A stretch of DNA of 64,000 bases from Candidatus Aenigmatarchaeota archaeon (GTDB taxonomy: Archaea > Aenigmatarchaeota > Aenigmatarchaeia > PWEA01 > JACQIF01): assembly GCA_016432325.1 (NCBI GenBank), contig CP066684.1, positions 714,112 through 778,111 on the forward strand, given 5' to 3'. The position numbers and the translations under genes were made by a program. The notes under the pieces are model-generated. The model worked only from the letters and a program-made list of their open reading frames with translations, ran no database searches and was not told the DNA's origin. Positions 6,401 to 44,824 of the stretch are shown piece by piece (the stretch's first letter is position 1; the number at the start of each line of letters is the position of its first letter).

Positions 6401-7348
6401 TTACTTCCCGCCTAACTCTCTGGCCAGCTCCTTTATGAACCTTTCAAAGTTCTTCGCAGGCACCTGCGCGCCGCACGCGGCCGCGTGTCCTCCGGCAGAG
6501 CCGCCAAGAGGCTTCGCCACCTTGCGCGCCACGCGGGCCAAATCGTGAGCGAACCCCTTGTTCGCACGCAGGGACATGTCGACGTGTCCACCTTCGAGTA
6601 TTCCTATTACGCCTACCTTGGCGTCTGCTATTCCCATAATCAGGTGCGCGCCTTTGGCCAGCGAACCCATCTCGATTATCGCGTATGCGACCTTTCCGAC
6701 AACAGTGTGGTTCTGGACCAGACGCTCGTAGAGCAGCTTGTCGTGCCTGGCCTCTTTCAGAGCGAGTTCCACAACGTCTTTCATTTCAGACGGCTCGACG
6801 CCTTTAACGAGTTCACGAACGATTCTCCGTTTCAGGTCGTACAGATGCCTCGCCTCTCCCATCGCCTCGAGAAGGATGCCCGCCTGGAAATAGATTATCC
6901 TCTTATCCCACTTCTCGAGCTCTTTCGTTATCCAGTTCGTGTCGTCCGCGTAGTCGCCTATCGCCCCGTAGAGCGCTATTCTTGAGAACTCCCTTGGAAG
7001 CTTTTCGTGCAGATACATGTACGCGAGCTCTGCCGTAGAGCGGTTGGTGTCGTGAACGTACTCGTCCGGAACGTCGCGATCGCGCGTTCCGTTGGGCAGC
7101 GGGTGGTGGTCTATGTAGAGAAGTTCGTATTTCGATGAGATGCGTTTCAGCTCCGCGAGAATCAGAGGCGCGTCCTCGTCGTGCAGCGCGATGTCCAGAA
7201 TCACGGTGTGCTCCTTGGTCGCCTTCAGGTCCGACAGGAGTTGCGTAGGCCGGCTGAAGTGTACGCTCTCCGCATCGACGCCGAAGGCTTTGGCTACGAG
7301 AACGGCAGACGTAAGACCGTCTGTGTCGCCGTGCGCGAAGATCTTCAG
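6401..7348 (-). CDS. DHH/DHHA1 family phosphoesterase, apparent non-canonical CTG start
   Basis: The track ORF starts at a GTG (7204). The same frame stays open upstream and encodes (L/M)KIFAHGDTDGLTSAVLVAKAFG, the DHH motif I. YIDHHPLP (DHH) and GGSAGGHAAACG (DHHA1) lie downstream. There is no in-frame ATG, GTG or TTG upstream of 7204, and CTG at 7348..7346 fits the family N-terminus. Confidence 0.65.
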   Translation of the reverse strand: MKIFAHGDTDGLTSAVLVAKAFGVDAESVHFSRPTQLLSDLKATKEHTVILDIALHDEDAPLILAELKRISSKYELLYIDHHPLPNGTRDRDVPDEYVHDTNRSTAELAYMYLHEKLPREFSRIALYGAIGDYADDTNWITKELEKWDKRIIYFQAGILLEAMGEARHLYDLKRRIVRELVKGVEPSEMKDVVELALKEARHDKLLYERLVQNHTVVGKVAYAIIEMGSLAKGAHLIMGIADAKVGVIGILEGGHVDMSLRANKGFAHDLARVARKVAKPLGGSAGGHAAACGAQVPAKNFERFIKELARELGGK

Positions 7349-7516
7349 AACACATCGCCCCCAATCCGTTCTGAAGTATTCGAACGAGGTTCGAAGATTT
7401 TCACGCGCCCGCCTCCGCGCGGCGTGAAAACTTGAGACCGCGTTTCAAGATTTTCAGGACCTATCCCCTCCATCCGGTCCCGAAGTATTTGAATGAGGTT
7501 CGAAGATTTTCATACT
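7329..7516. repeat. tandem ~78-nt direct repeat (7329..7406 and 7438..7516, about 75% identical) covering the 5' end and upstream region of the DHH gene
   Basis: Alignment by eye: ccgtgcgcgaagatcttcagaacacatcgcccccaatccgttctgaagtattcgaacgaggttcgaagattttcacgc versus ccgcgtttcaagattttcaggacctatcccctccatccggtcccgaagtatttgaatgaggttcgaagattttcatac. The two copies are separated by a GC-rich hairpin (ttttcacgc...gcgtgaaaa). Confidence 0.7.
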
Positions 7517-7546
7517 CCAGATAGTGCGGACCGATAAATAAAGAAG

Positions 7547-7752
7547 TGGTAGCCCCGGTAGGATATTCATGAAACGCGCGGCGTTTCATACTTTCGGCTT
7601 CTTCGAATCCGAAAGTCTTCGAACCTACGTCAACGGTTAGCTTCGTCTGCTCACAGTTCTTTCGAACTCGCATCTTTAGAGACAAACTCCAAAGACCGCT
7701 ATCCTTTTGTGGAACCGCTGGAATTCCGGTTTGGCCACTAGACGACGGGGCT
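7547..7752 (-). tRNA. tRNA-Gln(TTG), three introns (D-loop, 37/38, T-loop about 59/60), CCA encoded
   Basis: Hand fold. Approximate exons: 7752..7731, 7705..7689, 7638..7618, 7563..7550. Acceptor AGCCCCG/CGGGGCT plus A plus CCA. D stem GTCT/GGAT. Anticodon arm GCGGT-CTTTGGA-ACCGT. T arm GTAGG-TTCGAAT-CCTAC. Mature length is 74 nt. Introns are about 25, 50 and 54 nt. Confidence 0.8.
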
Positions 7753-14319: not shown

Positions 14320-15732
14320 ATGCGCCTCAACGTTACCGTGTCTTATCAGGAACATTTAAAGAAGCTAAGGGAGCATCTGAGCAAAGAGAATATCCCCTTC
14401 GCCGACCAATTAGACGCCGTCTATGCCGAGATGGCAGAAATCGATAAAAAACTGCAGATGTCTTACCCGCGGCCCGACGCCCTCATCCTTTGCGGAGGCA
14501 ACGGAACCAGATTTGCGGAAGGCAAGAAACCAAAGGTCCTCGCCGAGGTCAATGGAAGAATCCCATTGGAGTATACAATCGACACGCTCGCAAAACTCAA
14601 CTTCGACAAAGCCTTCATATCCGTTGGAGGCCCTCACGGAGACTCCATTAATGCCCACCTGAAAGAGATGGAGGCAAAACCAATCGGGCTGCTTGGACTA
14701 ACGTCGAGGCCAACAATCATCGAATCCGTAGATTACGGCAGACTCATGTCACACCTACACCACATATCGAAGGCCAACGGGAAGCTGATTGAAAACGGGT
14801 GCGAGCCGCTCAATCCAAACCTATTTGACAACGAACTAGACACGATTGTCGGGGTTGCGGCAGTTGCGTACACCGCCGCGACTCAACCGCCCCTTACAGT
14901 CGTGCTCGGCGATTCTATCTACCAAGAAGATGCCATATCATGGGCGTCAGGGTACTATACAATCGAGGCAAACATGGGCTTGACGGAGATGATGCCTGGC
15001 ACACGGGGAATATCGCCACGATTTCCATACATAAAGCCGCTCGTCCATGTTATGGAGAATTCAACAGAGGCGTATAAGGCGCCAGTCCCCAAGATTCATA
15101 AATTATTCTCCGTTCGCAAAGGCCCCCTTTCCTTTGATATCGGGCGTGCCGTTGGGTTCACCGAACACAGGACAAAACGAGTTGCCATATCGGTTGTAAG
15201 CCCATTGCCCTTCGACTACAGGATTATCTTCAGAGATAACGACGATCCAGCTGGACGCTCTCTCCCCCTCACCGAGGACGGGTCCCGAATAGACATGGAG
15301 AAGATCGCGTTACCGGGGATTTCTTACGGAGGATTCCTTTCGCACCTGAAAGAGGTCCAGTCCATATTCCCGCCGCTGGAAACAGGAAGTCGCCAGAAGC
15401 CTGCGCGCCTGCCACCATCGGACGCTACGCTCGAGCTTGCCGAGGCTACCTCGTCGCTGCTTGTGATGAGAACAAACTTCAAGTACTTCGACATCGACGA
15501 CGAGGAGACGCTTGCCGCGGCCAACGACGTTGACATAAAGGAATTTATCGCCAACGATCCACTAAGCATCCTGGAGAAGTCGACGCCCGGATACAGAAAA
15601 CAGTTTCTGGAAAAGCTTAACGAGGCCAGACACCGCCACCAACATACGTTCCGTGCTACAACTGGGGGACTCGGGAACTTTAAAGACCTCTATCAGTATG
15701 CGCTACGTGCATTTCGTAGACACACCGGATAG
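14320..15732 (+). CDS. protein with an N-terminal sugar-phosphate nucleotidyltransferase (NTP_transferase) motif and a large uncharacterised C-terminal region
   Basis: ALILCGGNGTRFAEGKKPKVLAEVNG is the GxGxR...K signature of GlmU/RmlA-type NTP transferases. It begins 4 nt after the preceding gene. Confidence 0.5.
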   Translation: MRLNVTVSYQEHLKKLREHLSKENIPFADQLDAVYAEMAEIDKKLQMSYPRPDALILCGGNGTRFAEGKKPKVLAEVNGRIPLEYTIDTLAKLNFDKAFISVGGPHGDSINAHLKEMEAKPIGLLGLTSRPTIIESVDYGRLMSHLHHISKANGKLIENGCEPLNPNLFDNELDTIVGVAAVAYTAATQPPLTVVLGDSIYQEDAISWASGYYTIEANMGLTEMMPGTRGISPRFPYIKPLVHVMENSTEAYKAPVPKIHKLFSVRKGPLSFDIGRAVGFTEHRTKRVAISVVSPLPFDYRIIFRDNDDPAGRSLPLTEDGSRIDMEKIALPGISYGGFLSHLKEVQSIFPPLETGSRQKPARLPPSDATLELAEATSSLLVMRTNFKYFDIDDEETLAAANDVDIKEFIANDPLSILEKSTPGYRKQFLEKLNEARHRHQHTFRATTGGLGNFKDLYQYALRAFRRHTG

Positions 15733-15915: not shown

Positions 15916-16024
15916 GCTCCGGTAGTTCAATTGGCAGAATGCTACGCTGTTAAACACTCCGCTCAAAGGGGCGGGTGCAAGCGGAGACGTAGAGACGGAG
16001 GTTCGAGTCCTCCCTGGAGCGCCA
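15916..16024 (+). tRNA. tRNA-Asn(GTT), canonical 37/38 intron (34 nt), CCA encoded
   Basis: Acceptor GCTCCGG/CTGGAGC plus G plus CCA. D arm GTTC-AATTGGCA-GAAT. Anticodon arm CTACG-CTGTTA[15953..15986]A-CGTAG. T arm GGAGG-TTCGAGT-CCTCC. The intron has a CTCCGC/GCGGAG helix. Mature length is 72 nt. A weak TATA (ctttacgt, 15884..15891) is centred 28.5 nt upstream. Confidence 0.9.
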
Positions 16025-16035
16025 TTGTGATAACC

Positions 16036-16293
16036 ATGGACATCGAAGAAGCGAAGAAGACCGCGAGGATAGCGAGGCTCGCGCTGAGCGAAGCCGAGCT
16101 CAGGAAGCTCGCCAAAGACGCGGATGAGATACTTGAGTGGGCCGAGCAGCTTGAGAGCGTGAAGAGCGAAACGGAAAAACGCGAGAGCGGCGCATTACGA
16201 GACGATCTGCCACAACACTTCGAGCCGCAAACGATAACTAAAAACTTCCCGCAGAAGAGCGGGTCGCATCTGAAGGTGCCGCGCTCGTTATGA
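16036..16293 (+). CDS. gatC: Asp/Glu-tRNA amidotransferase subunit C
   Basis: 85 aa, MDIEEAKKTARIARLALSEAELRKLAKDADEILEWAEQL. The ATG lies 11 nt after the tRNA-Asn CCA, and the stop overlaps the gatA start (ATGATG). Confidence 0.85.
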   Translation: MDIEEAKKTARIARLALSEAELRKLAKDADEILEWAEQLESVKSETEKRESGALRDDLPQHFEPQTITKNFPQKSGSHLKVPRSL

Positions 16294-17588
16294 TGGGCTC
16301 CAAGGAGATTCTCGGCCTGAGCACATCCGACGCGACAGAACGTTTTCACAAGCAGCTCACGCTCATAGAGAAGCAGAACAAGACATACAACGCGTTCGTT
16401 ACGGTCACAGACAAATATGCGAACGCCGGATATCCGTCGCTCGCAGTCAAGGACAACATACTCGTGGAAGGCATACGCTGCACATCCTCGTCGCGCGTTC
16501 TCGAAAACTACGTCGCGCCCTATTCGGCGGACGCGCTTCATAACGTCACGACGCACCTGCGCGTCATCGGCAAAACGGTGCACGATCCGTTCGGGGCTGG
16601 AGGTTCCGGCACGACATCCGATTTCGGCGCCACGAAAAACCCGTTTGACACGACGCGCGTTCCTGGTGGCTCTTCTGGAGGAAACGGAGTCGCGCTCGCT
16701 CTAGAGCAGTGCGACTTCGCGATAGGCAGCGACACTTTCGGCTCGGTACGTGCGCCTGCGGCGTTTTGCGGCGTCGTCGGCCTGCGTCCGACGTACGGAC
16801 TCGTTTCGCGCCACGGCTTGATGGACCTCGCGATGTCTCTTGATACTATAGCGCCGATGGCCCGCGACGTTTACGGAGTCGCGTATCTTCTGGAAAGAAT
16901 GGCGAACAAGCGATACGAACTGGATAAATTCTCGGCGAGGGGACTGAAGATTGTCGTACCGACAGAACTGCTGGATGGTTCGGCGAAGGAAGTCAGAGAC
17001 GCGGTTGAAAAGGCCATAGCGACGCTCACGGACGCGGGAGCGAAACGCGTTGACGTTCGCGCGCCTAACCTGCGCTACGCTGTTCCGTCTTACTACATCA
17101 CGATGTTTGCTGAGTTCTCGTCGGCGATGCAGCGGTTTGACGGCCTGAAATACGGGCCGCGCGCGGACGGCGAGACGCCGGAAGAAGCGGTTTCAAAGAC
17201 ACGCGGTTCGTACTTGAGCGAGGAGCTTAAACGGCGCATCTTCCTTGGCACGTATGCGACGCGCAAGGAGCACGCGAACAAGTGGTACGCCGCGGCTCTG
17301 CGAGGGCGCACGCTTGTCGCGAAAGAGATGCAGGGCCTGCTGAAGAAAGGCGACTTCATCGTGACGCCGACGATGCCTGTCCTGCCGTGGAAAATAGGAG
17401 AGCTCACGACGCCGCTTCAAAATTATCTGATGGACGTAATGACAGGCCCGCCTTCTCTGGCAGGTATGCCTGCGCTTAGCGTTCCGTGCGGCCGTACTGT
17501 CGGCCTGCAGATAATCGGGAACCGGTTCAAGGACGCGGAGGTATTGCAGCTCGGTCACGCATACGAGCGACTGAGGGATTCAAAATGA
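16290..17588 (+). CDS. gatA: Asp/Glu-tRNA amidotransferase subunit A (amidase signature family)
   Basis: 432 aa. Amidase signature GGSSGGNGVALA...GSDTFGSVRAPAAFCGVVGLRPTYG. Confidence 0.93.
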   Translation: MMGSKEILGLSTSDATERFHKQLTLIEKQNKTYNAFVTVTDKYANAGYPSLAVKDNILVEGIRCTSSSRVLENYVAPYSADALHNVTTHLRVIGKTVHDPFGAGGSGTTSDFGATKNPFDTTRVPGGSSGGNGVALALEQCDFAIGSDTFGSVRAPAAFCGVVGLRPTYGLVSRHGLMDLAMSLDTIAPMARDVYGVAYLLERMANKRYELDKFSARGLKIVVPTELLDGSAKEVRDAVEKAIATLTDAGAKRVDVRAPNLRYAVPSYYITMFAEFSSAMQRFDGLKYGPRADGETPEEAVSKTRGSYLSEELKRRIFLGTYATRKEHANKWYAAALRGRTLVAKEMQGLLKKGDFIVTPTMPVLPWKIGELTTPLQNYLMDVMTGPPSLAGMPALSVPCGRTVGLQIIGNRFKDAEVLQLGHAYERLRDSK

Positions 17589-18886
17589 AGGTCGGCCTGG
17601 AGATTCACGTCTATCCGCGCACGAGTGCCAAGATGTTCTGTATGTGTTTCGTGCGCGCTGAAGACGCCAATACGTCCGTATGCCCGCGGTGCACGGGCCA
17701 GCCGGGAGCGAAACCGATGGCCCCGAACAGAACGGCAGTGGAGAAAGCCGTTGTTCTTGCCAAGGCGCTTGGTTGCAAGTTGGAAGTGCGCGCGACTGTT
17801 CTGCGCAAGCACTACTTCTATCCGGATCTGCCGTCGAACTACCAGAGAACGTCGACGCCCATCGGCCGCGAAGGTTCGTTCCTGGGCGTGCGCATACGTG
17901 AAGTGCACGTTGAGGAGGACGCCGCGCGTTACGAACCGCGGGACGGGACCGTGGACTACAACCGAGCGGGCGTACCCTTGATAGAAGTAGTTACAGAACC
18001 GGACATCAACAGCACAGACGCGGCAAAGAACTTCGTCGACGAGTTCTCGCGCCTGCTGCACTATCTCAAGATTGCGGATCCCTCGTCCGCGATAAAGGCC
18101 GATACGAACGTGTCTGTCGGCGACACGCGCGTGGAGGTCAAGAACATCAACACAACGCATGGAATCCTGGCCGCGATTGAACACGAGGCCAAAAGACAGA
18201 CCGAGCTTCTCGAGCGCGGAGGCACGCTCGTGCAAGAGACGCGCCACTGGGATGAAACGAAAGGCCGCACACTCGCGTCGCGGGAAAAGGAAACGGAATC
18301 AGACTACAGATATATGGAAGACCCGGACCTGCAGCCGATTGACATTTCGTCCGTACGCGTCGCAACGCCGGAGGACACGTTCGCCGCGCGCAAACGTTTG
18401 GAACGTGCGGGCGTGGCGCGCGACGCGGCTGTCGCCGTAACAGAGGAACAGGAGTTCGTGGCGCTGTTCGACTCGTTGTCCAAGAGGTTCGAGCCACAGC
18501 GCGTCGCCGAGTGGATAAGACGCGACCTGCGCGGCGAGCTCAACCACCGCACGCTGACGCTGGAACAGAGCGGCGTGAAAACGAAAGACGTCGAAAGGCT
18601 CATGGACGACGCGTTGTCCGAGAAGATTACGCGGCACAAGGCGAAACAGCTGTTGCGTGAGCTTCTGGACAAGAAGGAGAGCAAGCACACAACGAAAGCA
18701 TCGAAGGAGGACGTCGAGAAGGCCGTCGAGGCGACACTGCTGGCACACCAAGATGTCGTACAGAGGTACCGCGAAGGCAAGAAAGAGGCCTTCAACTTCC
18801 TGCTCGGCGAAACCAATCGCGCGCTCGGCTTCGCCGCGGACCCGAAGGAGATCGCGAAGGTTCTGAAAGAGAAGCTTAATATGTGA
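17585..18886 (+). CDS. gatB: Asp/Glu-tRNA amidotransferase subunit B
   Basis: MKVGLEIHVY..., YFYPDLPSNYQRTS, EVHVEEDAA, and the C-terminal GatB/YqeY-like helices. The start overlaps the gatA stop (ATGA at 17585). Confidence 0.9.
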   Translation: MKVGLEIHVYPRTSAKMFCMCFVRAEDANTSVCPRCTGQPGAKPMAPNRTAVEKAVVLAKALGCKLEVRATVLRKHYFYPDLPSNYQRTSTPIGREGSFLGVRIREVHVEEDAARYEPRDGTVDYNRAGVPLIEVVTEPDINSTDAAKNFVDEFSRLLHYLKIADPSSAIKADTNVSVGDTRVEVKNINTTHGILAAIEHEAKRQTELLERGGTLVQETRHWDETKGRTLASREKETESDYRYMEDPDLQPIDISSVRVATPEDTFAARKRLERAGVARDAAVAVTEEQEFVALFDSLSKRFEPQRVAEWIRRDLRGELNHRTLTLEQSGVKTKDVERLMDDALSEKITRHKAKQLLRELLDKKESKHTTKASKEDVEKAVEATLLAHQDVVQRYREGKKEAFNFLLGETNRALGFAADPKEIAKVLKEKLNM

Positions 18887-20339: not shown

Positions 20340-23300
20340 GTGAAAAACCATAGGACGTTCTTGCTGACACTGTTCGCAGCGGCAATATTAATGGGCCCAT
20401 CGGCTCTCGCGCAGACTCCCGATTATCTGAACATAGACGCCGGAACGACTCCGGACGACCCGTTCTACTTCTTTGACACGACGTGGGATGGCGTCCAGAT
20501 GTTCATCGCAATCAGCCCAGAAGACAAGGCGGCGCTCGCCGCGGAAATCAGCGCGGAGCGCTTCGCCGAGATGCACCAGATGATGGAAGAGAACAACTGG
20601 GTGGCGGCCCAATCAGCGGCGCAAGGCGCCGAGTCGTGGACGGGCCAGTTCGCCACTGCGCTTGAGAGCCTGCCGCCTATTGTTGATCCTGTTGCTCTTG
20701 CAGAGATAGGAGAACTTTCTCATTATGTTAACGACTATTCAGATGCCGTACATGAGCAGTATGAAGAGCTTCTGGCGTCCGGCGAGCTTGATGAGGCGAC
20801 GGCAGACACGCTGCCTGTAGACGCCCTTGTCGAAAGCACTGTTGACGCCCAGGCCGGTTATGTCGAAGCCAAGGACGAGGTCATAGCGGCCGCGGCCGAG
20901 GAACAGGGAATCACGCAAATAGAGGCCGGGATACAGTACTCCAATGCCGAGGAGGATGTGGGCCTGACAGACGTGCAGAAGGATGCGGTCGCTACGGAAC
21001 TCGTGGACGCGCGAGATGCGGCGACTGAACTTGAGGAGGCGTACTTGGCTCTGCCTGACGGCGAGGAGAAGCTCGTCCTAGGCAACATGGTGGAGGACGC
21101 GAAGCTCAACCTGCAACAGAGCGAGTACCTGTTCAAGGCGGGCGATTATGACGCAGCTTCCGGCAATCTCATCGAGGGACAGCACTGGATATTCAACGCG
21201 CAGGACTACGCTGGCGGCGAGCTGACCGAGGACCAAAAGGCCGCCTTTGAAGAGCAGTTCACGAACGTGGAAGCCATAAGGGACGAGGTAACGGACGGGA
21301 GCGCGACTTTCGTGGAAGAGTGGGAAGCCAACAAGGACGCCCTGACAGCCGCATATCCTGAAGAGGCGGCGATTCTTGAGCAGCGCTTCGAGCAGGAGCA
21401 GAACGTTGTTGCTATAGCGACCGCCCTTGAAGAATCATATTCAACAGAGCTCAACGACCTGATTACGGCAGGCGAGGACCCGTCAGAGGCCGCTCGGATA
21501 TTGGCGGCGCAGCAGGCCGACGAATACAGGAAGGCATACGGCGAGGAGTTCGTTCCTCCGGGATTCATCGTAACGGGTGAGATTGAACTGCCTGAAGGAG
21601 CCGATGCAACTGCGGTAGAGAATTTCGCCGATCCTGAAATCGCGGCTGGCGCAGGCGGCGGCTTCGTGATAGGAACGCAGTACGTTGATCCAGTCACGGA
21701 TTACAAGTATGAGTTCGTCGAAACGGGCTGGAGATTCACGACTCCGTCCGGCCAGGCATACGAGCATCCATATCCTGAAGGATACGAACCGGCGTCCGCC
21801 TTCGAGAACGGCAACGAAGAGTACAGTTATACTGTCGACACTCCAGAAGGGCTCGCTCAATATACGTATACTCCTACCGGATACGAAGTCGTCACGCCTG
21901 AAGGAACGACCGAAACTTATGCTTACACGCCCGGGCAGTATAAGCTTCCTGACGGCAAGACAGTGAACTACAAGCCGACCGGCTACGAGATAAGGGACGG
22001 CGCGGTCGTCGAGGCAAAATACGATTACAATCCCGAGTTCAACGCCTACGCGTCCGCCGACGGCACGGTCTACAGGCCGCCTGACGGGGCGTACTACCAC
22101 TACAAGACCGACTACAGCGCAGTCGAGGGAAAATACACTTATGCCGCGGGCAGCGACACGTGGACATACGATCCCAAGACCGCTTCGTGGGCTTCCGGAG
22201 GCGGAGAGACCTACAAGCCGCCCACGGCCGTCGTAGCGCCTGTCGGTTACGAGTCTGACGGCGTTTACCGCTCGCCATCAGGCGTCAGATGGGATTACAA
22301 TTCTGGCACAGGAACGTGGGGATCCACAAGCGGGGAATCCTACAACTCTGCAAACGGCGCGTACCGCTCTGCAACAGGCGCCACAACCACGCACGCTTAC
22401 GATTACAGCAGGCCAACCTACGGCTACGATGCGAGAACGCAGGAGTACAGGTTTGACACCGTGACGCGCGAAGGCACAGGCACGTGGACATACAACCCGC
22501 AGGCGAACATCTGGACGTCAGGCTCTGGAGAAACTACAGAAGCAAGTCGCGGTTACGTGCCGCCTACCACGTTGAACTACCCAACGCCCGTGGCGTATCA
22601 GTCTCCATCGTTCTATCCATACCCATCGCCAGGACAGGCGTACGTGACGCCGGCTCCTTACCAGACACCGTCTTACCAGACTCCCAACTTCGCTTACCAG
22701 ACTCCTTACTACTCCTACCCCTCGCCCTCGTACGTTTACCCGTCGCCCGGCACGTATCCAACGCCTTCGTACGTCTACCCCACTCCGTACCAGTACCCGA
22801 CACCGGGAAATACATACCCGTCGCCATACTACGCCTACCCAACTCCGGGACAGTACTACCAGACGCCAAACTACTACATCTACCCGACGCCAAGCTCCAC
22901 GTACCCAACGCCTGCGTACACATACCCGTCTCCCTACTACTCTTACCCTTCGCCGTCTGACTCCTACCAGACTCCGTACTACGCTTACCCGTCTCCATCC
23001 TCTTACCCAACGCCCTCATACACATATCCAACTCCGGGAACAGAGTACGCTTACCCAACGCCTTCGACCACAGGATATTCGTACCCATCGCCTTCGTACG
23101 CGACACCATACACCTATCCCACTCCGGGCTCGTACCCAACACCATACTACCAGAGCCCCACGTACTACGCTTACCCCACGCCTTCCGCAGACTACGTGAC
23201 GCCAACATACTACTCGTACCCGTCGCCGTCTGAAGGCAGCTACCCGTACCCAACGCCTTCATACCCGTCTCCGTATTCGTACCCGACACCGGGAACCGGC

Positions 23301-23693
23301 TACTCGTATCCGTCGCCTTCGTACAGCTACCCGACACCTTCGTCATACACATATCCGACCCCGGGCAGCGCATACGGATATCCGTCGCCTTCGTACACGT
23401 ACCCATCCCCGACGGGTACTTACGTAACGCCTTCCTACTCGACGCCCTCATACGCCTACCCGACTCCAACAGAGGGAGGTTACTCGTATCCATCGCCTTA
23501 CCCGTATCCAACGCCGTCCGAGGGAGGTTACCCGTACCCAACGCCTTACGCGTCTCCGTCCGAAGGATATTCGTACCCATCGCCTGGTTCGTACCCAACT
23601 CCGTCCGAAGGTTATGCCTATCCAACTCCGTACGGAACTCCTGAGTCGTACGGCACACCATACGACTACCCATCTCCGTACGGCACGCCCTAG
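20340..23693 (+). CDS. large secreted/surface protein: signal peptide, acidic helical N-region (DUF5667-like), beta-rich middle, and a ~375-aa Y/P/T/S low-complexity tail
   Basis: 1117 aa. N-terminus MKNHRTFLLTLFAAAILMGPSALAQ. DDPFYFFDTTWDGVQMFIA...AERFAEM resembles DUF5667. The tail is made of YPTPS / YPSPS / YQTP units and has no C-terminal TM helix. GTG start, with a TATA (gatttatata) about 35 nt upstream. Confidence 0.8.
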   Translation: MKNHRTFLLTLFAAAILMGPSALAQTPDYLNIDAGTTPDDPFYFFDTTWDGVQMFIAISPEDKAALAAEISAERFAEMHQMMEENNWVAAQSAAQGAESWTGQFATALESLPPIVDPVALAEIGELSHYVNDYSDAVHEQYEELLASGELDEATADTLPVDALVESTVDAQAGYVEAKDEVIAAAAEEQGITQIEAGIQYSNAEEDVGLTDVQKDAVATELVDARDAATELEEAYLALPDGEEKLVLGNMVEDAKLNLQQSEYLFKAGDYDAASGNLIEGQHWIFNAQDYAGGELTEDQKAAFEEQFTNVEAIRDEVTDGSATFVEEWEANKDALTAAYPEEAAILEQRFEQEQNVVAIATALEESYSTELNDLITAGEDPSEAARILAAQQADEYRKAYGEEFVPPGFIVTGEIELPEGADATAVENFADPEIAAGAGGGFVIGTQYVDPVTDYKYEFVETGWRFTTPSGQAYEHPYPEGYEPASAFENGNEEYSYTVDTPEGLAQYTYTPTGYEVVTPEGTTETYAYTPGQYKLPDGKTVNYKPTGYEIRDGAVVEAKYDYNPEFNAYASADGTVYRPPDGAYYHYKTDYSAVEGKYTYAAGSDTWTYDPKTASWASGGGETYKPPTAVVAPVGYESDGVYRSPSGVRWDYNSGTGTWGSTSGESYNSANGAYRSATGATTTHAYDYSRPTYGYDARTQEYRFDTVTREGTGTWTYNPQANIWTSGSGETTEASRGYVPPTTLNYPTPVAYQSPSFYPYPSPGQAYVTPAPYQTPSYQTPNFAYQTPYYSYPSPSYVYPSPGTYPTPSYVYPTPYQYPTPGNTYPSPYYAYPTPGQYYQTPNYYIYPTPSSTYPTPAYTYPSPYYSYPSPSDSYQTPYYAYPSPSSYPTPSYTYPTPGTEYAYPTPSTTGYSYPSPSYATPYTYPTPGSYPTPYYQSPTYYAYPTPSADYVTPTYYSYPSPSEGSYPYPTPSYPSPYSYPTPGTGYSYPSPSYSYPTPSSYTYPTPGSAYGYPSPSYTYPSPTGTYVTPSYSTPSYAYPTPTEGGYSYPSPYPYPTPSEGGYPYPTPYASPSEGYSYPSPGSYPTPSEGYAYPTPYGTPESYGTPYDYPSPYGTP
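22560..23693 (+). repeat. degenerate in-frame tandem repeats encoding (Y-P-[TS]-P-[SG]-x-Y)n
   Basis: Repeated tacccaacgccttcg / tacccgtcgcc units are visible throughout. The long antisense ORFs here (for example 22564..23673) are by-products. Confidence 0.8.
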
Positions 23694-26865: not shown

Positions 26866-27085
26866 TGGTGCTCCTGTCGGGATTTTCATGGTGCCGGAAG
26901 GCGTAGTTTCTTTGCACCCGTGCTTTCTTTTTAAAGAAAGCCCGGTTTGAACCCGAGTCACAGCCTTTCTCTGCGTCGTTTTCTGCTGAAGCTCTTTCTT
27001 AAAGAGCTTCCTTGAGAGGGCCGGATCCTTACGATTTCTTCCTGCCCGCAGGACGGGAAGTTTGACCGGTCTAGACTACAGGAGC
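26866..27085 (-). tRNA. tRNA-Glu(CTC), three introns (D-loop, 37/38, T-loop 59/60), CCA encoded
   Basis: Approximate exons: 27085..27062, 27029..27013, 26966..26946, 26882..26869. Acceptor GCTCCTG/CAGGAGC plus A plus CCA. D stem GTCT/GGAT. Anticodon arm CGGCC-CTCTCAA-GGCTG. T arm TCGGG-TTCAAAT-CCCGA. Mature length is 76 nt. Introns are about 32, 46 and 63 nt. Confidence 0.8.
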
Positions 27086-29237: not shown

Positions 29238-29258
29238 CGTATCACACGAATGTGTAAA

Positions 29259-29522
29259 TGGCGGGCCCGGAGGGACGTTCATGAAACGCCCGGCGTTTCT
29301 AACTTTCAGCTCCTTCGGAGCCAAAAGCTTTCGAACCCTCGACATCTTGGTGTCTTTTGCCGAGCGTAGGCATTCGAAGCCAAGCGCTCTATTTACCCCG
29401 CCTTGCGGGAGCGGATTTCATTCGGGAGTGCTCTCCCAATGTGCCGGAACTTTGTTCCGTGCATTCCCGCGGGTTTTTGCACGGACGTGTGCAAAAAGGC
29501 GCCCAAGCTGAGCCACGGACCC
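29259..29522 (-). tRNA. tRNA-Arg(TCG), three introns (D-loop ~111 nt, anticodon loop ~22 nt, T-loop ~54 nt), CCA encoded
   Basis: Approximate exons: 29522..29502, 29390..29373, 29350..29330, 29275..29262. Acceptor GGGTCCG/CGGGCCC (one G-U pair) plus G plus CCA. D arm GCTC-AGCTTGGGA-GAGC. Anticodon arm CTTGG-CTTCGAA-CCAAG. Variable loop ATGTC. T arm GAGGG-TTCGAAT-CCCTC. Mature length is 74 nt. Confidence 0.8.
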
Positions 29523-36234: not shown

Positions 36235-36801
36235 ATGAACGTAGAATACGGAAGCGAAGAGGCGCACAAGTTCGTTACGAACGTGGGACTGGTCACCAGC
36301 GACGGGCCGCACGGGCCGAACGTGATGGCCTGCGAGTGGACGCACCACGTCTCGTACGAACCCGGTCTTATTGTTATAAACGTGGACGCCGCGGATGCGA
36401 CGGCCGACAACATCCGCGCGACCGGCGAGTTCGGCGTCTCTCTCGCCGCCGAAGACCAGAGTGTCGTTTCGAGCGTCGCAGGCGGCTCCCACGGCCAGAG
36501 CGTCGACAAGATTGCTGTTCTGAAAGAAATGGGCGTCGAGTTCTACGCGGGAAAGAAAATAAAGGCGCCGATGATAAAAGGAGTCGCTCTGAGCGTGGAG
36601 TGCCGCGTCGTCGAAACGCGCGAACTGGGAGACCATGTGATGTTCGTGGGCGAAGCCGTTGACGTGCGGATGTCCGACAAACCGCCTCTCGTGTATCACG
36701 GCGGCAAGTACTGGAAGGTAGGGGAGCGCGTAGAGAAGCCGTCGCAGGACGTTCTGGAGAGCATAAAGAGGCTCGTTGAGAAGCACAGGAAAGGCGCGTA
36801 G
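36235..36801 (+). CDS. flavin reductase-like (FMN-binding split-barrel) domain protein
   Basis: VGLVTSDGPHGPNVMACEWTHHVSYEPGLIVINV and GDHVMFVGEAVDV are typical of the Flavin_Reduct family. Confidence 0.7.
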   Translation: MNVEYGSEEAHKFVTNVGLVTSDGPHGPNVMACEWTHHVSYEPGLIVINVDAADATADNIRATGEFGVSLAAEDQSVVSSVAGGSHGQSVDKIAVLKEMGVEFYAGKKIKAPMIKGVALSVECRVVETRELGDHVMFVGEAVDVRMSDKPPLVYHGGKYWKVGERVEKPSQDVLESIKRLVEKHRKGA

Positions 36802-39485: not shown

Positions 39486-39534
39486 GCGGGAGTAGCCAGA
39501 ACTGCGGTTCTGAAACTCCCCCATTGAAGAACAT
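39486..39534 (+). other. promoter-proximal duplicate of the tRNA-Leu(GAG) 5' end, folded as a hairpin (leader or extra intron)
   Basis: GCGGGAGTAGCC (39486..39497) is identical to tRNA positions 1-12. GGGAGT pairs with ACTCCC (39515..39520), enclosing the hairpin AGAAC-TGCG-GTTCT. Confidence 0.6.
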
Positions 39535-39756
39535 GCGGGAGTAGCCTAGACTGGTCAATGGCGCCGGCTTGAGGGGCCGGTTCCTTAGTGGATTCGCCGG
39601 TTCAAAGCTTTTTGCGCCAATGCGCATAAAGCTCAACGCGCAAAAGGCTTTAGCAGAAATACGCCTTCGTGCATCTTCGAACGATTGCGTTCGAAGTATT
39701 TCGGACGCAGTCCGAAAACGAAGGCGCGCGTTTCGAAATTCCGGCCTCCCGCACCA
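39535..39756 (+). tRNA. tRNA-Leu(GAG), one 133-nt T-loop intron (59/60), CCA encoded
   Basis: Exons are 39535..39606 and 39740..39753. Acceptor GCGGGAG/CTCCCGC plus A plus CCA. Anticodon arm CCGGC-TTGAGGG-GCCGG. Long variable arm TTCCTTAGTGGATTC. T arm GCCGG-TTCAAA[39607..39739]T-CCGGC. Mature length is 86 nt. Confidence 0.85.
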
Positions 39757-42105: not shown

Positions 42106-43164
42106 TCACTTCTCGGCCATTATCTCCTTGACCTTCTTTTCCAGATCGGTTTTGTAGGTCTCGGAACGGTCCTCTTTCGAATAGAAGTCGGTCTTCGCTG
42201 CCATCGATATCTTCGCCGCCAGAGCACGCGCGACCTTGCCCCTTTTCTCCTGCGGCGCGTGCTGGATGTACGGATGCGTGAACAGCAGTCCATACTTGGG
42301 CGGTCGCGCGTCCCGTGCGCCCTGCTTGCGCGACTTCATGAAACGGAAGAGCGCCTTCTCCGCGCCGAGGAGCTGTATCGTGGACGCAGGCATCTTGGCC
42401 AAACGCTCGAGAGAGCCGGCGTGCTTGATCATCTTCGCCGCCAGTATCGGTCCCGCGACGGCCGTTGTGTTGGGCGCGACTCCGGGCATCGCCCGTTCGA
42501 GATACATTTCGTAATCCCTTTTGAGGCCGAACAGGTCCACGGTTTCCGCGGCGTGCAGTCTTATCTGTTCGAGGTCGTCCTCCTCTATGTACGTGCCTAT
42601 AGTGTCTTCCTCGCGTTTCGCCCCGTCGACTATCGCCTGCGCGTACTTCTCGTTGTCGCGAGTCTTGCGTTCCAGTTCCGGATGGTAGATTCCGTACCAC
42701 TCGTGCAGGCGTTCTGACATCACGTTCGCTATCTCTGTCAGGTCTTCGATGGAAGCGACGGCCTGCGCGACTATCTTATCCTTGTTCGGTTTCGCCTTCA
42801 GTTTTTCCTTTGTTTCCAGCCGCGCGAGCTCGGAGAGCAGCGCGTTCAGCTCCTGCTGGTCCTTGACAAACCCCGTTTCGACTGCAAGTTTGCGGACGTT
42901 GCTCGCCGCGTACTGCGCGCCCGGGTTGCCGGGCTCGCGCGTTATCTCAAAGCCTTCGTACTCGAAACCCAGGTCTGTGACGAGCGCCTTGTCCTTGGCT
43001 GTCGCGAGAACCTCGTCCAGTTCGGGCGTAGTGACTCCCTTGCGCAGGACGTGCAGCCGCTCCTTGATGGTCGCTGCGTCCCTTGGAAACAGGGAGAAGG
43101 CTGCAACGTTGAAGTCCTTGTCCAGCGCGAAAACGCCCGCGTAGCAGGCTGTCACGTACAACAT
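42106..43164 (-). CDS. nop5: box C/D sRNP core protein Nop5 (Nop56/58)
   Basis: LAKMPASTIQLLGAEKALFRFMKSRKQGARDARPPKYGLLFTHPYIQ is the NOP domain signature. The start is trimmed to MLYVTACYAG (the track ORF begins at an upstream TTG). Confidence 0.88.
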   Translation of the reverse strand: MLYVTACYAGVFALDKDFNVAAFSLFPRDAATIKERLHVLRKGVTTPELDEVLATAKDKALVTDLGFEYEGFEITREPGNPGAQYAASNVRKLAVETGFVKDQQELNALLSELARLETKEKLKAKPNKDKIVAQAVASIEDLTEIANVMSERLHEWYGIYHPELERKTRDNEKYAQAIVDGAKREEDTIGTYIEEDDLEQIRLHAAETVDLFGLKRDYEMYLERAMPGVAPNTTAVAGPILAAKMIKHAGSLERLAKMPASTIQLLGAEKALFRFMKSRKQGARDARPPKYGLLFTHPYIQHAPQEKRGKVARALAAKISMAAKTDFYSKEDRSETYKTDLEKKVKEIMAEK

Positions 43165-43256
43165 ATCCGACCGCTCCTCTGAAAGGGTCGCTCGCGAAGG
43201 TTTAAATAGCTCATGCCGCAAGGGCGGGAGCTTTAAACCGCCCAGCGCCCGGAAGG

Positions 43257-43264
43257 TTTAAATA
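43257..43264 (+). promoter_or_regulatory. TATA box (ggTTTAAATAgg) for rps17e
   Basis: Centred 26.5 nt upstream of the ATG at 43287. Confidence 0.6.
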
Positions 43265-43286
43265 GGCAACGTCTAAACCTCCAGCT

Positions 43287-43580
43287 ATGGGAAGAAACGA
43301 AACCTTCGGTTTCAATCTTCCCCGTGAGTTGAGCTATATGGGAAGAATAAAGACCGCGCAGGTGAAGTCTCTCGGCAAGGATTTCGTCAAGGCCTATCCG
43401 GACAGGTTCACGACAGACTTCGACAAGAACAAGGAGATTCTGGCGACGGCCCAGATGAAGTCCAAGTGGCTCAAGAATCGTCTGGCCGGATACACGGCGA
43501 AGCTCATGAAGCAGAAGGCCCGCGGCGTCATCATAACCGCTCCTCAGAAACAGGAAGAAGAGAAGAAGGAAGAGACATAG
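43287..43580 (+). CDS. rps17e: 30S ribosomal protein S17e
   Basis: MGRIKTAQVKSLGKDFVKAYPDRFTTDFDKNKE...KNRLAGYTAKLMK matches S17e. Homology begins at the second MGR (43338), but the TATA spacing favours the leaderless ATG at 43287, so the start is ambiguous. Confidence 0.85.
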   Translation: MGRNETFGFNLPRELSYMGRIKTAQVKSLGKDFVKAYPDRFTTDFDKNKEILATAQMKSKWLKNRLAGYTAKLMKQKARGVIITAPQKQEEEKKEET

Positions 43581-43587
43581 TGGGATT

Positions 43588-43956
43588 TGGTGCGGAGGGC
43601 CGGACATTCTCCATGAATGCGCCAAGGCACATCGTGCCCGCAGGCGGATTTTTCATGAAAGTTTTTGCACGGAAGTGTGCAAAAAGTTTCGAACCGACGA
43701 ACGCACTAAGCGACCAGATATCTCGAAGCGCATTTTTGATTTTCGCGTTTCGGATAAGCCTTCTTGAGTGTTGCCTCTCACAGAGTTTCCTCTCGAAACT
43801 CAAGGAACTGGCACCGTTGGTCTACGACTTCGTGTCGGAAGACGTACTTTCCGTGCATCTCGGAACGCGTGCGTTCCGAGTTTCCGAATACCGTTCGGAA
43901 ATGCTTTTGCGCTCTGTGGCGCAAAAGCTTGCTTGGCCAGGCTTGGTTACCTCCGC
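43588..43956 (-). tRNA. tRNA-Leu(CAA), four introns (D-loop, anticodon stem 30/31, 37/38, T-loop 59/60), CCA encoded
   Basis: Exons are 43956..43933, 43816..43808, 43769..43763, 43719..43688 and 43604..43591. Acceptor GCGGAGG/CCTCCGC plus A plus CCA. The spliced anticodon arm is CCAGA-CTCAAGA-TCTGG (a perfect 5 bp). The variable arm TCGCTTAGTGCGTTC parallels that of Leu-GAG. T arm GTCGG-TTCGAAT-CCGGC. Mature length is 86 nt. Introns are 116, 38, 43 and 83 nt. Confidence 0.7.
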
Positions 43957-44015
43957 AAACTAAACCGACTTTCTTGCGGCAGGTACAAGAAGCTTTGCTT
44001 CTTGGTTACCTCCGC
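43957..44015 (-). other. promoter-proximal duplicate of the tRNA-Leu(CAA) 5' end, folded as a hairpin
   Basis: GCGGAGGTAACCAAG (44015..44001) is identical to tRNA positions 1-15. GCGG/GGTA pairs with TACCTGCCGC (43985..43976), enclosing the hairpin AAGAAGC-AAA-GCTTCTT. Confidence 0.6.
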
Positions 44016-44697: not shown

Positions 44698-44824
44698 GCG
44701 CCGATGATCTAGTGGCATGATTCGAGCTTCCCAAGCTCGTTGTGCGGGTTCGATGACATCCTGTCCCATGGGGCGGGAGGTTTGAAACGCGAAGCGTTTC
44801 AGGAATATCCCGCTCGGCGCACCA
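44698..44824 (+). tRNA. tRNA-Gly(CCC), one ~53-nt T-loop intron (58/59 or 59/60), CCA encoded
   Basis: Exons are 44698..44753 and 44807..44821. Acceptor GCGCCGA/TCGGCGC plus A plus CCA. Anticodon arm CGAGC-TTCCCAA-GCTCG. T arm GCGGG-TTCGA[intron]AT-CCCGC. Mature length is 71 nt. Confidence 0.85.

Follow-up and report, generated by a model that had tools for sequence, protein, structure and literature searches.

The stretch of DNA analysed here (the window, 64 kb in length) carries seven tRNA genes that are interrupted by 16 introns in total. They are set among housekeeping genes for IleRS, ThrRS, two class II synthetases, GatA/GatB, Nop5, PurP and TCA-cycle enzymes. Standard searches are nearly blind to these tRNA genes: ARAGORN recognizes none of the seven in the raw window, and Rfam at its gathering threshold recognizes tRNA-Asn alone (55 bits). 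Gene models were therefore assembled by hand, by scanning for a T arm with a matching acceptor stem, followed by manual reading. When the 16 introns are removed in silico, all seven products are called by ARAGORN as complete tRNAs, perfect cloverleaves that bear the expected anticodons. Three additional candidates (14625-14775, 36282-36497 and 42996-43415) lie inside ORFs or are without a cloverleaf, and were dropped. The seven genes are:

7547-7752, minus strand: tRNA-Gln(TTG), three introns (D-loop, 7707-7732; position 37/38, 7639-7688; position 59/60)
15916-16024, plus strand: tRNA-Asn(GTT), one intron at 37/38; alone among the seven genes in having no T-loop intron
26866-27085, minus strand: tRNA-Glu(CTC), three introns
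29259-29522, minus strand: tRNA-Arg(TCG), three introns (D-loop, 37/38 and 59/60); CCA is encoded
39535-39756, plus strand: tRNA-Leu(GAG), one intron at 59/60
43588-43956, minus strand: tRNA-Leu(CAA), four introns
44698-44824, plus strand: tRNA-Gly(CCC), one intron at 59/60

Automatic annotation would make genomes of this lineage look tRNA-poor. An incapacity to predict full tRNA sets has been reported for some DPANN and Asgard genomes (PMC5829648), and since standard finders miss intron-rich genes such as these, the missing tRNAs in those genomes may be an annotation artefact.

Two features of the surrounding coding sequence are recorded here. The tRNA-Asn(GTT) gene lies directly upstream of gatA and gatB (together 15916-18886), which encode the amidotransferase that makes Asn-tRNA or Gln-tRNA, and a functional linkage between these neighbors is possible. 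A 1117-aa DUF5667 protein is encoded at 20340-23693, with degenerate repeats of about 21-45 nt (repeat families D1-D8) at 22670-23630 on the plus strand; the C-terminal repeat region of this protein is probably surface-exposed.

The tRNA-Arg(TCG) gene has a TATA-like CTTTAAG about 30 nt upstream. Its T arm is interrupted between positions 59 and 60, where the exon sequence runs GAGGG-TTCGAA before the intron and T-CCCTC after it; the segment singled out in the original prediction, 29276-29329, is exactly this intron. An intron at the same position is found in six of the seven tRNA genes, tRNA-Asn being the exception. In the list that follows a slash within a bulge marks the cut.

29276-29329, minus strand: tRNA-Arg 59/60 intron, 54 nt; 4/4 pairs TTCG:TGAA; bulges AA/A and CG/T; two hairpins
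29283-29299, minus strand: hairpin 2 of the Arg intron, GAAACGC-CGG-GCGTTTC, an exact pattern match that abuts the central helix
7564-7617, minus strand: tRNA-Gln 59/60 intron, 54 nt; paralogue of the Arg intron, with hairpin 2 at 7571-7587
44755-44807, plus strand: tRNA-Gly 59/60 intron, 53 nt; two-hairpin layout, with hairpin 2 at 44784-44800
26883-26945, minus strand: tRNA-Glu 59/60 intron, 63 nt; two-hairpin layout, without the shared hairpin 2
39607-39739, plus strand: tRNA-Leu(GAG) 59/60 intron, 133 nt; ends GCGTTTCGAAAT
43605-43687, minus strand: tRNA-Leu(CAA) 59/60 intron, 83 nt; its hairpin at 43661-43686 is common with the Arg D-loop intron

Splice-site geometry was scored as an outer helix, a 4-bp central helix formed by four nucleotides of the 5' exon and four near the 3' end of the intron, and, in each 3-nt bulge, cleavage between the second and third nucleotides. 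All six T-loop introns display the T stem as a 5-bp outer helix, three or four of the four central pairs (T54-R57 with NGAA), a 3' bulge of the form NN/T60 and a 5' cut after position 59. Folds of these introns give two hairpins, the first beginning 1 nt past the 5' cut and the second ending flush against the central helix. The strict hBHBh' motif is absent, as the 5' bulge is not continued by an inner helix (h'=0 in five of the six, h'=2 in Leu(CAA)), and by motif scan and folds the introns belong with the relaxed hBH, or bulge-helix-loop, form. Excision restores a complete cloverleaf in seven of seven genes, as is expected of archaeal BHB-type tRNA introns. Among the other introns, those at 37/38, the Gln D-loop intron and the 30/31 intron of tRNA-Leu(CAA) fit the geometry well, and the Arg D-loop intron does so after a 1-nt shift of its boundary (H 4/4, h' 6). 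No endonuclease or ligase gene (EndA, RtcB) was found within the 64-kb window, and no convincing motif was seen by which hairpin 1 of the Gln, Arg or Gly intron could be a nested intron with its own splicing signal. The T-loop introns are candidates for archaeal endonuclease splicing through a relaxed motif, with a 5' site predicted to lie in a three-way junction.

In the tRNA-Arg precursor, the T stem (49-53/61-65) would serve as the outer helix, and T54-G57 would pair with UGAA near the intron 3' end to make the 4-bp central helix. The 3' cut would fall within the 3-nt bulge NN/U60, and the 5' cut after A59 in a 3-nt junction (A58 A59/N1). Hairpin 2 (GAAACGC-NNN-GCGUUUC), stacked against the central helix, is probably the inner helix; hairpin 1 would branch at the 5' cut site, which would make the motif a relaxed hBH (bulge-helix-loop) one and not the strict one. 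It is proposed that EndA cuts at both sites and that RtcB ligates the exons.

This geometry bears on how the terminal sequences of the introns are to be read. It had been claimed that all six T-loop introns end with GAA and one or two nucleotides before T60, and that most begin with RCTTTT. The GAA is present in all six, with exactly two nucleotides following it, and R-CTTT opens four of the six (Gln, Arg, Leu-GAG and Leu-CAA); the Glu intron has GCTTTCTT four nucleotides further in. Both the GAA-NN ending and the 59/60 position are dictated by BHB geometry acting on a near-invariant T-loop, and an ending fixed by the splicing motif is therefore uninformative on descent. Transposition or gain, as argued from these features for all six introns, accordingly loses its footing; it holds up for the Gln, Arg and Gly introns, where the similarity lies in nucleotides that pair within the intron and the introns are more alike than the exons.

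The Gln and Arg T-loop introns are identical at 41 of 50 positions along their whole length (78% globally, 82% over 50 nt), a similarity that extends beyond the 3' end described in the original prediction. The Gly intron is 63-69% identical to them globally and has hairpin 2 (GAAACGC-NNN-GCGTTTC) and the 3' tail in common with both; over its last 28 nt, the 3' module, 24 positions match Gln. In an all-against-all comparison of the window's 16 introns, local alignments gave z-scores against shuffles of 25 for Gln-Arg, 10 for Gln-Gly and 9.5 for Arg-Gly, and a de novo repeat search pairs 7544-7632 with 29256-29344 at 76% (family D9). The three nearly identical strings to which attention had been drawn do sit at the 3' ends of these introns. 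The Gly string is exactly at 44783..44806 (plus strand); on the minus strand the Gln string starts at 7588 (given as 7590) and the Arg string at 29300 (given as 29303), offsets of 2-3 nt. The sequence GAAACGCNNNGCGTTTC occurs exactly three times in the 64 kb, each time equidistant from T60 of a tRNA; shuffled sequence yields 0.66 matches even when two mismatches are allowed. The genes that harbor these introns are indeed unrelated, as had been stated: Gln and Arg have 63% identity in their exons and differ in their T stems, and exon identity among Gln, Arg and Gly is 63-66%.

Divergence is distributed unevenly along the three introns. Over the 27 positions of hairpin 1, Gln and Arg differ at 6, and Gly differs from each of them at 12; RNAalifold reports three compensatory pairs there, for example U-A to C-G between Gln and Arg. 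The 14 stem positions of hairpin 2 show no difference in any of the three comparisons. Its three loop positions differ at 1 (Gln-Arg), 3 (Gln-Gly) and 3 (Arg-Gly), the loops across the three introns being CGC, CGG and GAA.

The family appears small. A covariance model built from the Gln, Arg and Gly introns has as its fourth match the Glu T-loop intron, which is weak (E=9e-4), and the model detects no further copy beyond this T arm; the Glu, Leu(GAG) and Leu(CAA) T-loop introns have weak or patchy similarity to the other three. Hairpin 2 matches no Rfam family. Exact scans for GAAACGCNNNGCGTTTCANGAA returned 56 loci in GTDB genomes, 57 in public metagenomes and one in a viral contig, none of them in a T-arm context, and the loci outside the window are chance matches or unrelated repeats. 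For the second shared hairpin, an exact scan of viral contigs gave two matches, attributable to chance.

A related genome provides a view of the tRNA-Gln gene in a different state. The lineage is poorly sampled: the ThrRS of the window has no relative above 61% full-length identity, and the best named matches come from Aenigmarchaeota/Aenigmatarchaeota, where the ThrRS catalytic core matches at 65% and Nop5 at 66%. In one MAG, GCA_038999215.1 (Aenigmatarchaeota), a tRNA-Gln gene immediately precedes ThrRS, the arrangement also seen in the window, and in both a VTT-domain gene comes after ThrRS. Its acceptor stem is identical to that of the window tRNA-Gln and its exons are 86% identical, and it has a 37/38 intron only, the D-loop and T-loop introns being absent. 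None of the three tRNAs at this locus has a T-loop intron, as compared with six of seven in the window (Fisher p=0.03). The orthologous 37/38 introns of the two tRNA-Gln genes are about 56% identical, less alike than the paralogous T-loop introns of Gln and Arg, so that, if rates are similar, the T-loop family would have spread after the lineages split. The comparison favours a recent gain and spread of the T-loop intron; with one window and one orthologue in hand, gain as opposed to loss would hang on a single outgroup, tRNA-Gln, together with parsimony. Orthologues of the Leu(CAA) and Gly genes were sought through Nop5 synteny in three relatives (66-70% identity), where no tRNA was found at the loci, and none was found at three loci of ThrRS relatives (L061, L062 and L121); the search yielded no orthologue of tRNA-Arg or tRNA-Gly. 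As a separate observation, a relative (L124) that carries a 68%-identical Nop5 has a directly repeated unit of about 60 nt, present twice (GTTTCAATAGTCCATTA.GCA.TGGGTGATGTTAATGGACAC), at ~1720-1960, between class II aaRS and S17e genes.

The T-loop introns of Gln, Arg and Gly are paralogous, and one orthologous gene lacks the intron. The Arg segment is probably an intron of the protein-spliced type, a member of a small paralogous family that was copied to the same site in the Gln, Arg and Gly genes; an intron copied between genes would be a further case of a phenomenon already described for other archaea. A reason for the choice of site is suggested by the shape of the T arm, whose 5-bp stem and 7-nt loop resemble the anticodon arm and would make 59/60 a structural twin of 37/38. 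As in canonical archaeal 37/38 BHB introns, a 5-bp stem and four loop nucleotides paired with the intron 3' end are present, and cleavage leaves two nucleotides of each 3-nt bulge on its 5' side. The two sites differ in the exon partner of the central helix: in the anticodon loop it varies from tRNA to tRNA, whereas at 59/60 it is the near-invariant UUCR, and one intron therefore fits many tRNAs. With a T-loop of near-invariant UUCRA, an intron tail of the form NGAA-NN would rebuild the splicing motif in any tRNA, which would turn the T-loop into a universal landing site and account for its occupation in six of seven genes. Candidate routes for the copying are DNA recombination via the conserved T-loop flanks, or reverse splicing with reverse transcription.

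Whole-intron copying followed by simple neutral drift does not predict an invariant hairpin 2 beside a diverged hairpin 1. The contrast between 0/14 differences in the hairpin 2 stems and 6-12/27 in hairpin 1 suggests either that selection maintains the hairpin or that this module is exchanged by itself. The second of these may be put more generally: the introns could be mosaics drawn from a small stock of hairpins that recombination or gene conversion passes between them, also across tRNA positions, with Gly having gained hairpin 2 secondarily. This is a tentative alternative, less probable than not on present evidence. It draws on a second hairpin that is common to two introns at different positions of different tRNAs:

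29393-29502, minus strand: Arg D-loop intron, 110 nt
29473-29498 and 43661-43686, minus strand: 26-nt hairpin CTTTTTGCACAC[G/T]TCCGTGCAAAAAC, in the Arg D-loop and Leu(CAA) T-loop introns respectively

The two copies are identical at 25 of 26 positions (z=17), with the sole difference in the loop, and their flanks are unrelated, a pattern unlike that expected from whole-intron copying and neutral drift. The identity of hairpin 2 stems at 14/14 positions in three introns, with Gly differing at 12/27 in hairpin 1, is readily accommodated by such exchange. Three weaker blocks point the same way: TGCA..GAAA.TACG.CTTCCG.CAC is common to the Glu T-loop and Leu(CAA) D-loop introns, AGCAGAAA to the Glu anticodon-loop and Leu(GAG) T-loop introns, and TTTTGCGCC..GCGCA.AAAGC to the Leu(GAG) T-loop and Leu(CAA) D-loop introns. 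Their z-scores are only 3-6, however, and 16 introns are too few for a statistical demonstration of mosaicism; moreover, Gln and Arg are alike over the entire intron, as whole-intron copying predicts. In its widest form, in which the T-loop is a near-saturated landing site (6/7), the introns are mosaics, what moves is a hairpin some 20-26 nt long and the same process made the four-intron tRNA, the proposal is speculative and is entertained here as a possibility of the same low order.

Related hairpins of the form CTTTTGCGCC...GCGCAAAAG stand at the start of two introns, those in the T-loop of Leu(GAG) and the D-loop of Leu(CAA), and several hairpins of the CTTTTTGCACAC/CTTTTGCGCC type carry runs of five T. 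Such runs can act as archaeal terminator signals.

Selection on hairpin 2 is the other way to account for its constancy. The hairpin would then be a functional element: it might, for instance, be a helix recognized by the endonuclease or by some other protein, or belong to a stable intron RNA, excised or circular. The stems of hairpin 2 are invariant, as this would require, and the loop, junction and bulge nucleotides and hairpin 1 vary (Fisher p=0.02 for Gln-Arg); it also sits on the central helix, where an inner helix is expected. Three of the six T-loop introns do without it, however, so that it is not required for splicing at 59/60, and the lack of an Rfam family match and of any T-arm context among the 113 exact-match loci in GTDB genomes and public metagenomes also weigh against a selected element, which we regard as unlikely. 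Inspection by eye for a C/D-box or K-turn in hairpin 2 found neither RUGAUGA/CUGA boxes nor tandem G·A pairs, and these were rejected.

That the three introns converged without common origin, driven by what the splicing motif demands of an intron in a conserved T-loop, is very improbable. Convergence would fully explain the NGAA-NN ending, the 59/60 position and T60. It leaves out the rest: about four of the shared nucleotides pair with the exon, but the 14 hairpin 2 stem positions, and the 21 of 27 hairpin 1 positions identical in Gln and Arg, pair within the intron, and an explanation through exon pairing fails for these. The similarity is thus not limited to what is needed to pair with the T-loop, as it would have been under the refuting outcome named in the original prediction. 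An exact copy of the module is expected by chance about 5e-4 times in 64 kb (128,000 positions / 4^14), and three are seen.

Independent assemblies touch on part of the window. In four runs, six Logan contigs agree with it at 0 mismatches, and they span the whole T-loop intron of Leu(GAG) and part of that of Glu. Three of the Logan contigs end at 26934, in the Glu T-loop intron, and two start at 29450, in the Arg D-loop intron; the Arg T-loop intron falls between these points, outside the Logan contigs from other samples. The common break points suggest either that repeats no shorter than a k-mer occur at other places in the genome or that introns vary within the population. An ancient intron inherited through tRNA gene divergence, or an assembly artefact, is scarcely credible: nothing specific speaks for either beyond the 2.5 kb with the Arg gene body that is absent from contigs of other samples, and against them stand exons far more diverged than the introns, an orthologous tRNA-Gln without the T-loop intron, the mismatch-free Logan contigs and spliced products that are perfect cloverleaves.

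The preferred reading, an intron family copied between tRNA genes, has its nearest precedent in the Thermoproteales, in which highly similar introns in distinct tRNAs were read as the outcome of transposition (Fujishima 2010, as summarised in PMC4090602, PMC4033280 and PMC10714607). Fujishima et al. 2010 (Mol Biol Evol 27:2233) are reported to describe large-scale intron transposition in this order and a late gain limited to sites able to form the splicing motif. The transposed introns are like the present ones in sharing a position, which there may be canonical or non-canonical, among tRNAs of different amino-acid specificities whose bodies are not closely related. A transposed intron group was reportedly defined there by sequence similarity above 70%. 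The Gln/Arg pair exceeds this value by either measure, and Gly is borderline; the three introns occupy the same position, 59/60, in the distinct genes for Gln(TTG), Arg(TCG) and Gly(CCC). The present case differs in its host, which is probably Aenigmatarchaeota-like (DPANN) and not a crenarchaeote, and in the introns, which are 53-133 nt long with a two-hairpin layout, one hairpin being common to D-loop and T-loop introns. Exact matching found the hairpin module in a tRNA context in no GTDB representative genome.

The closest counterpart to the splice site itself is the pre-tRNA-Cys(GCA) of ARMAN-2, which has a 13-nt 59/60 intron of hBH type that is cleaved in vitro by the organism's own endonuclease (PMC3239211). 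ARMAN-2 (Candidatus Micrarchaeum) is also a DPANN archaeon, and the site and the relaxed hBH motif are alike; splicing in the present introns is inferred from sequence. The ARMAN-2 intron is far from the present ones in length, no sharing between tRNAs has been reported for it, and the 5' cut site here lies in a three-way junction with an extra hairpin.

The spread of tRNA introns, so far documented for Thermoproteales, is extended by these observations to a distant and poorly sampled archaeal lineage, in which it seems to have gone very far, with 16 introns in seven genes. The Gln/Arg pair, with an outgroup that lacks the T-loop intron, makes a clean case for testing intron copying, and the invariant hairpin lends itself to a simple mutational test of endonuclease recognition in this lineage. 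Disrupted tRNA genes have been proposed to resist integration (Randau and Soll 2008, as cited in PMC4033280). [quoted passage not shown]

Just 3' of the tRNA-Gln gene are two 66-nt direct repeats, 80% identical (7338-7403 and 7447-7512, plus strand), each of which holds GGTTCGAAGATTTTC, an opposite-strand copy of the tRNA-Gln T-arm/intron junction (GGTTCGAAGACTTTC, 7611-7625). The sequence there is structured, and the overlapping ORF gave no Pfam domain match.

The four introns of tRNA-Leu(CAA), all on the minus strand, lie in the D-loop (43817-43932) and at 30/31 (43770-43807), 37/38 (43720-43762) and 59/60 (43605-43687). The anticodon is carried on a 7-nt micro-exon, and a 369-nt gene yields an 89-nt tRNA; the D-loop intron has a weak splicing motif, with 3/4 central pairs. 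Reviews give three introns as the maximum for an archaeal tRNA (PMC4033280, PMC3239211), and this gene appears to exceed the published maximum by one. Upstream of each tRNA-Leu gene lies a copy of the gene's initial 12-15 nt, at 44001-44015 (GCGGAGGTAACCAAG, at a distance of 59 nt) and at 39486-39497 (GCGGGAGTAGCC, at 49 nt). The copies pair with an acceptor-3'-like strand plus A to form a stable mini-helix (fold z -4.1 and -3.7), and the TATA-like box precedes the copy, rather than the mature 5' end, by about 30 nt. In Caldiarchaeum subterraneum, intron gain has been described together with a scattered 5' tRNA fragment (Sugahara et al. 2012, PMC3293823), and a copy of the tRNA gene 5' end upstream of an intron-rich gene is common to that case and to both Leu genes; the spacer there is a 1.8-kb recombinase-encoding element, whereas here it is 37-44 nt with no recombinase. 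The tRNA-Leu 5' copies could be collapsed old gene copies or a leader processing signal.
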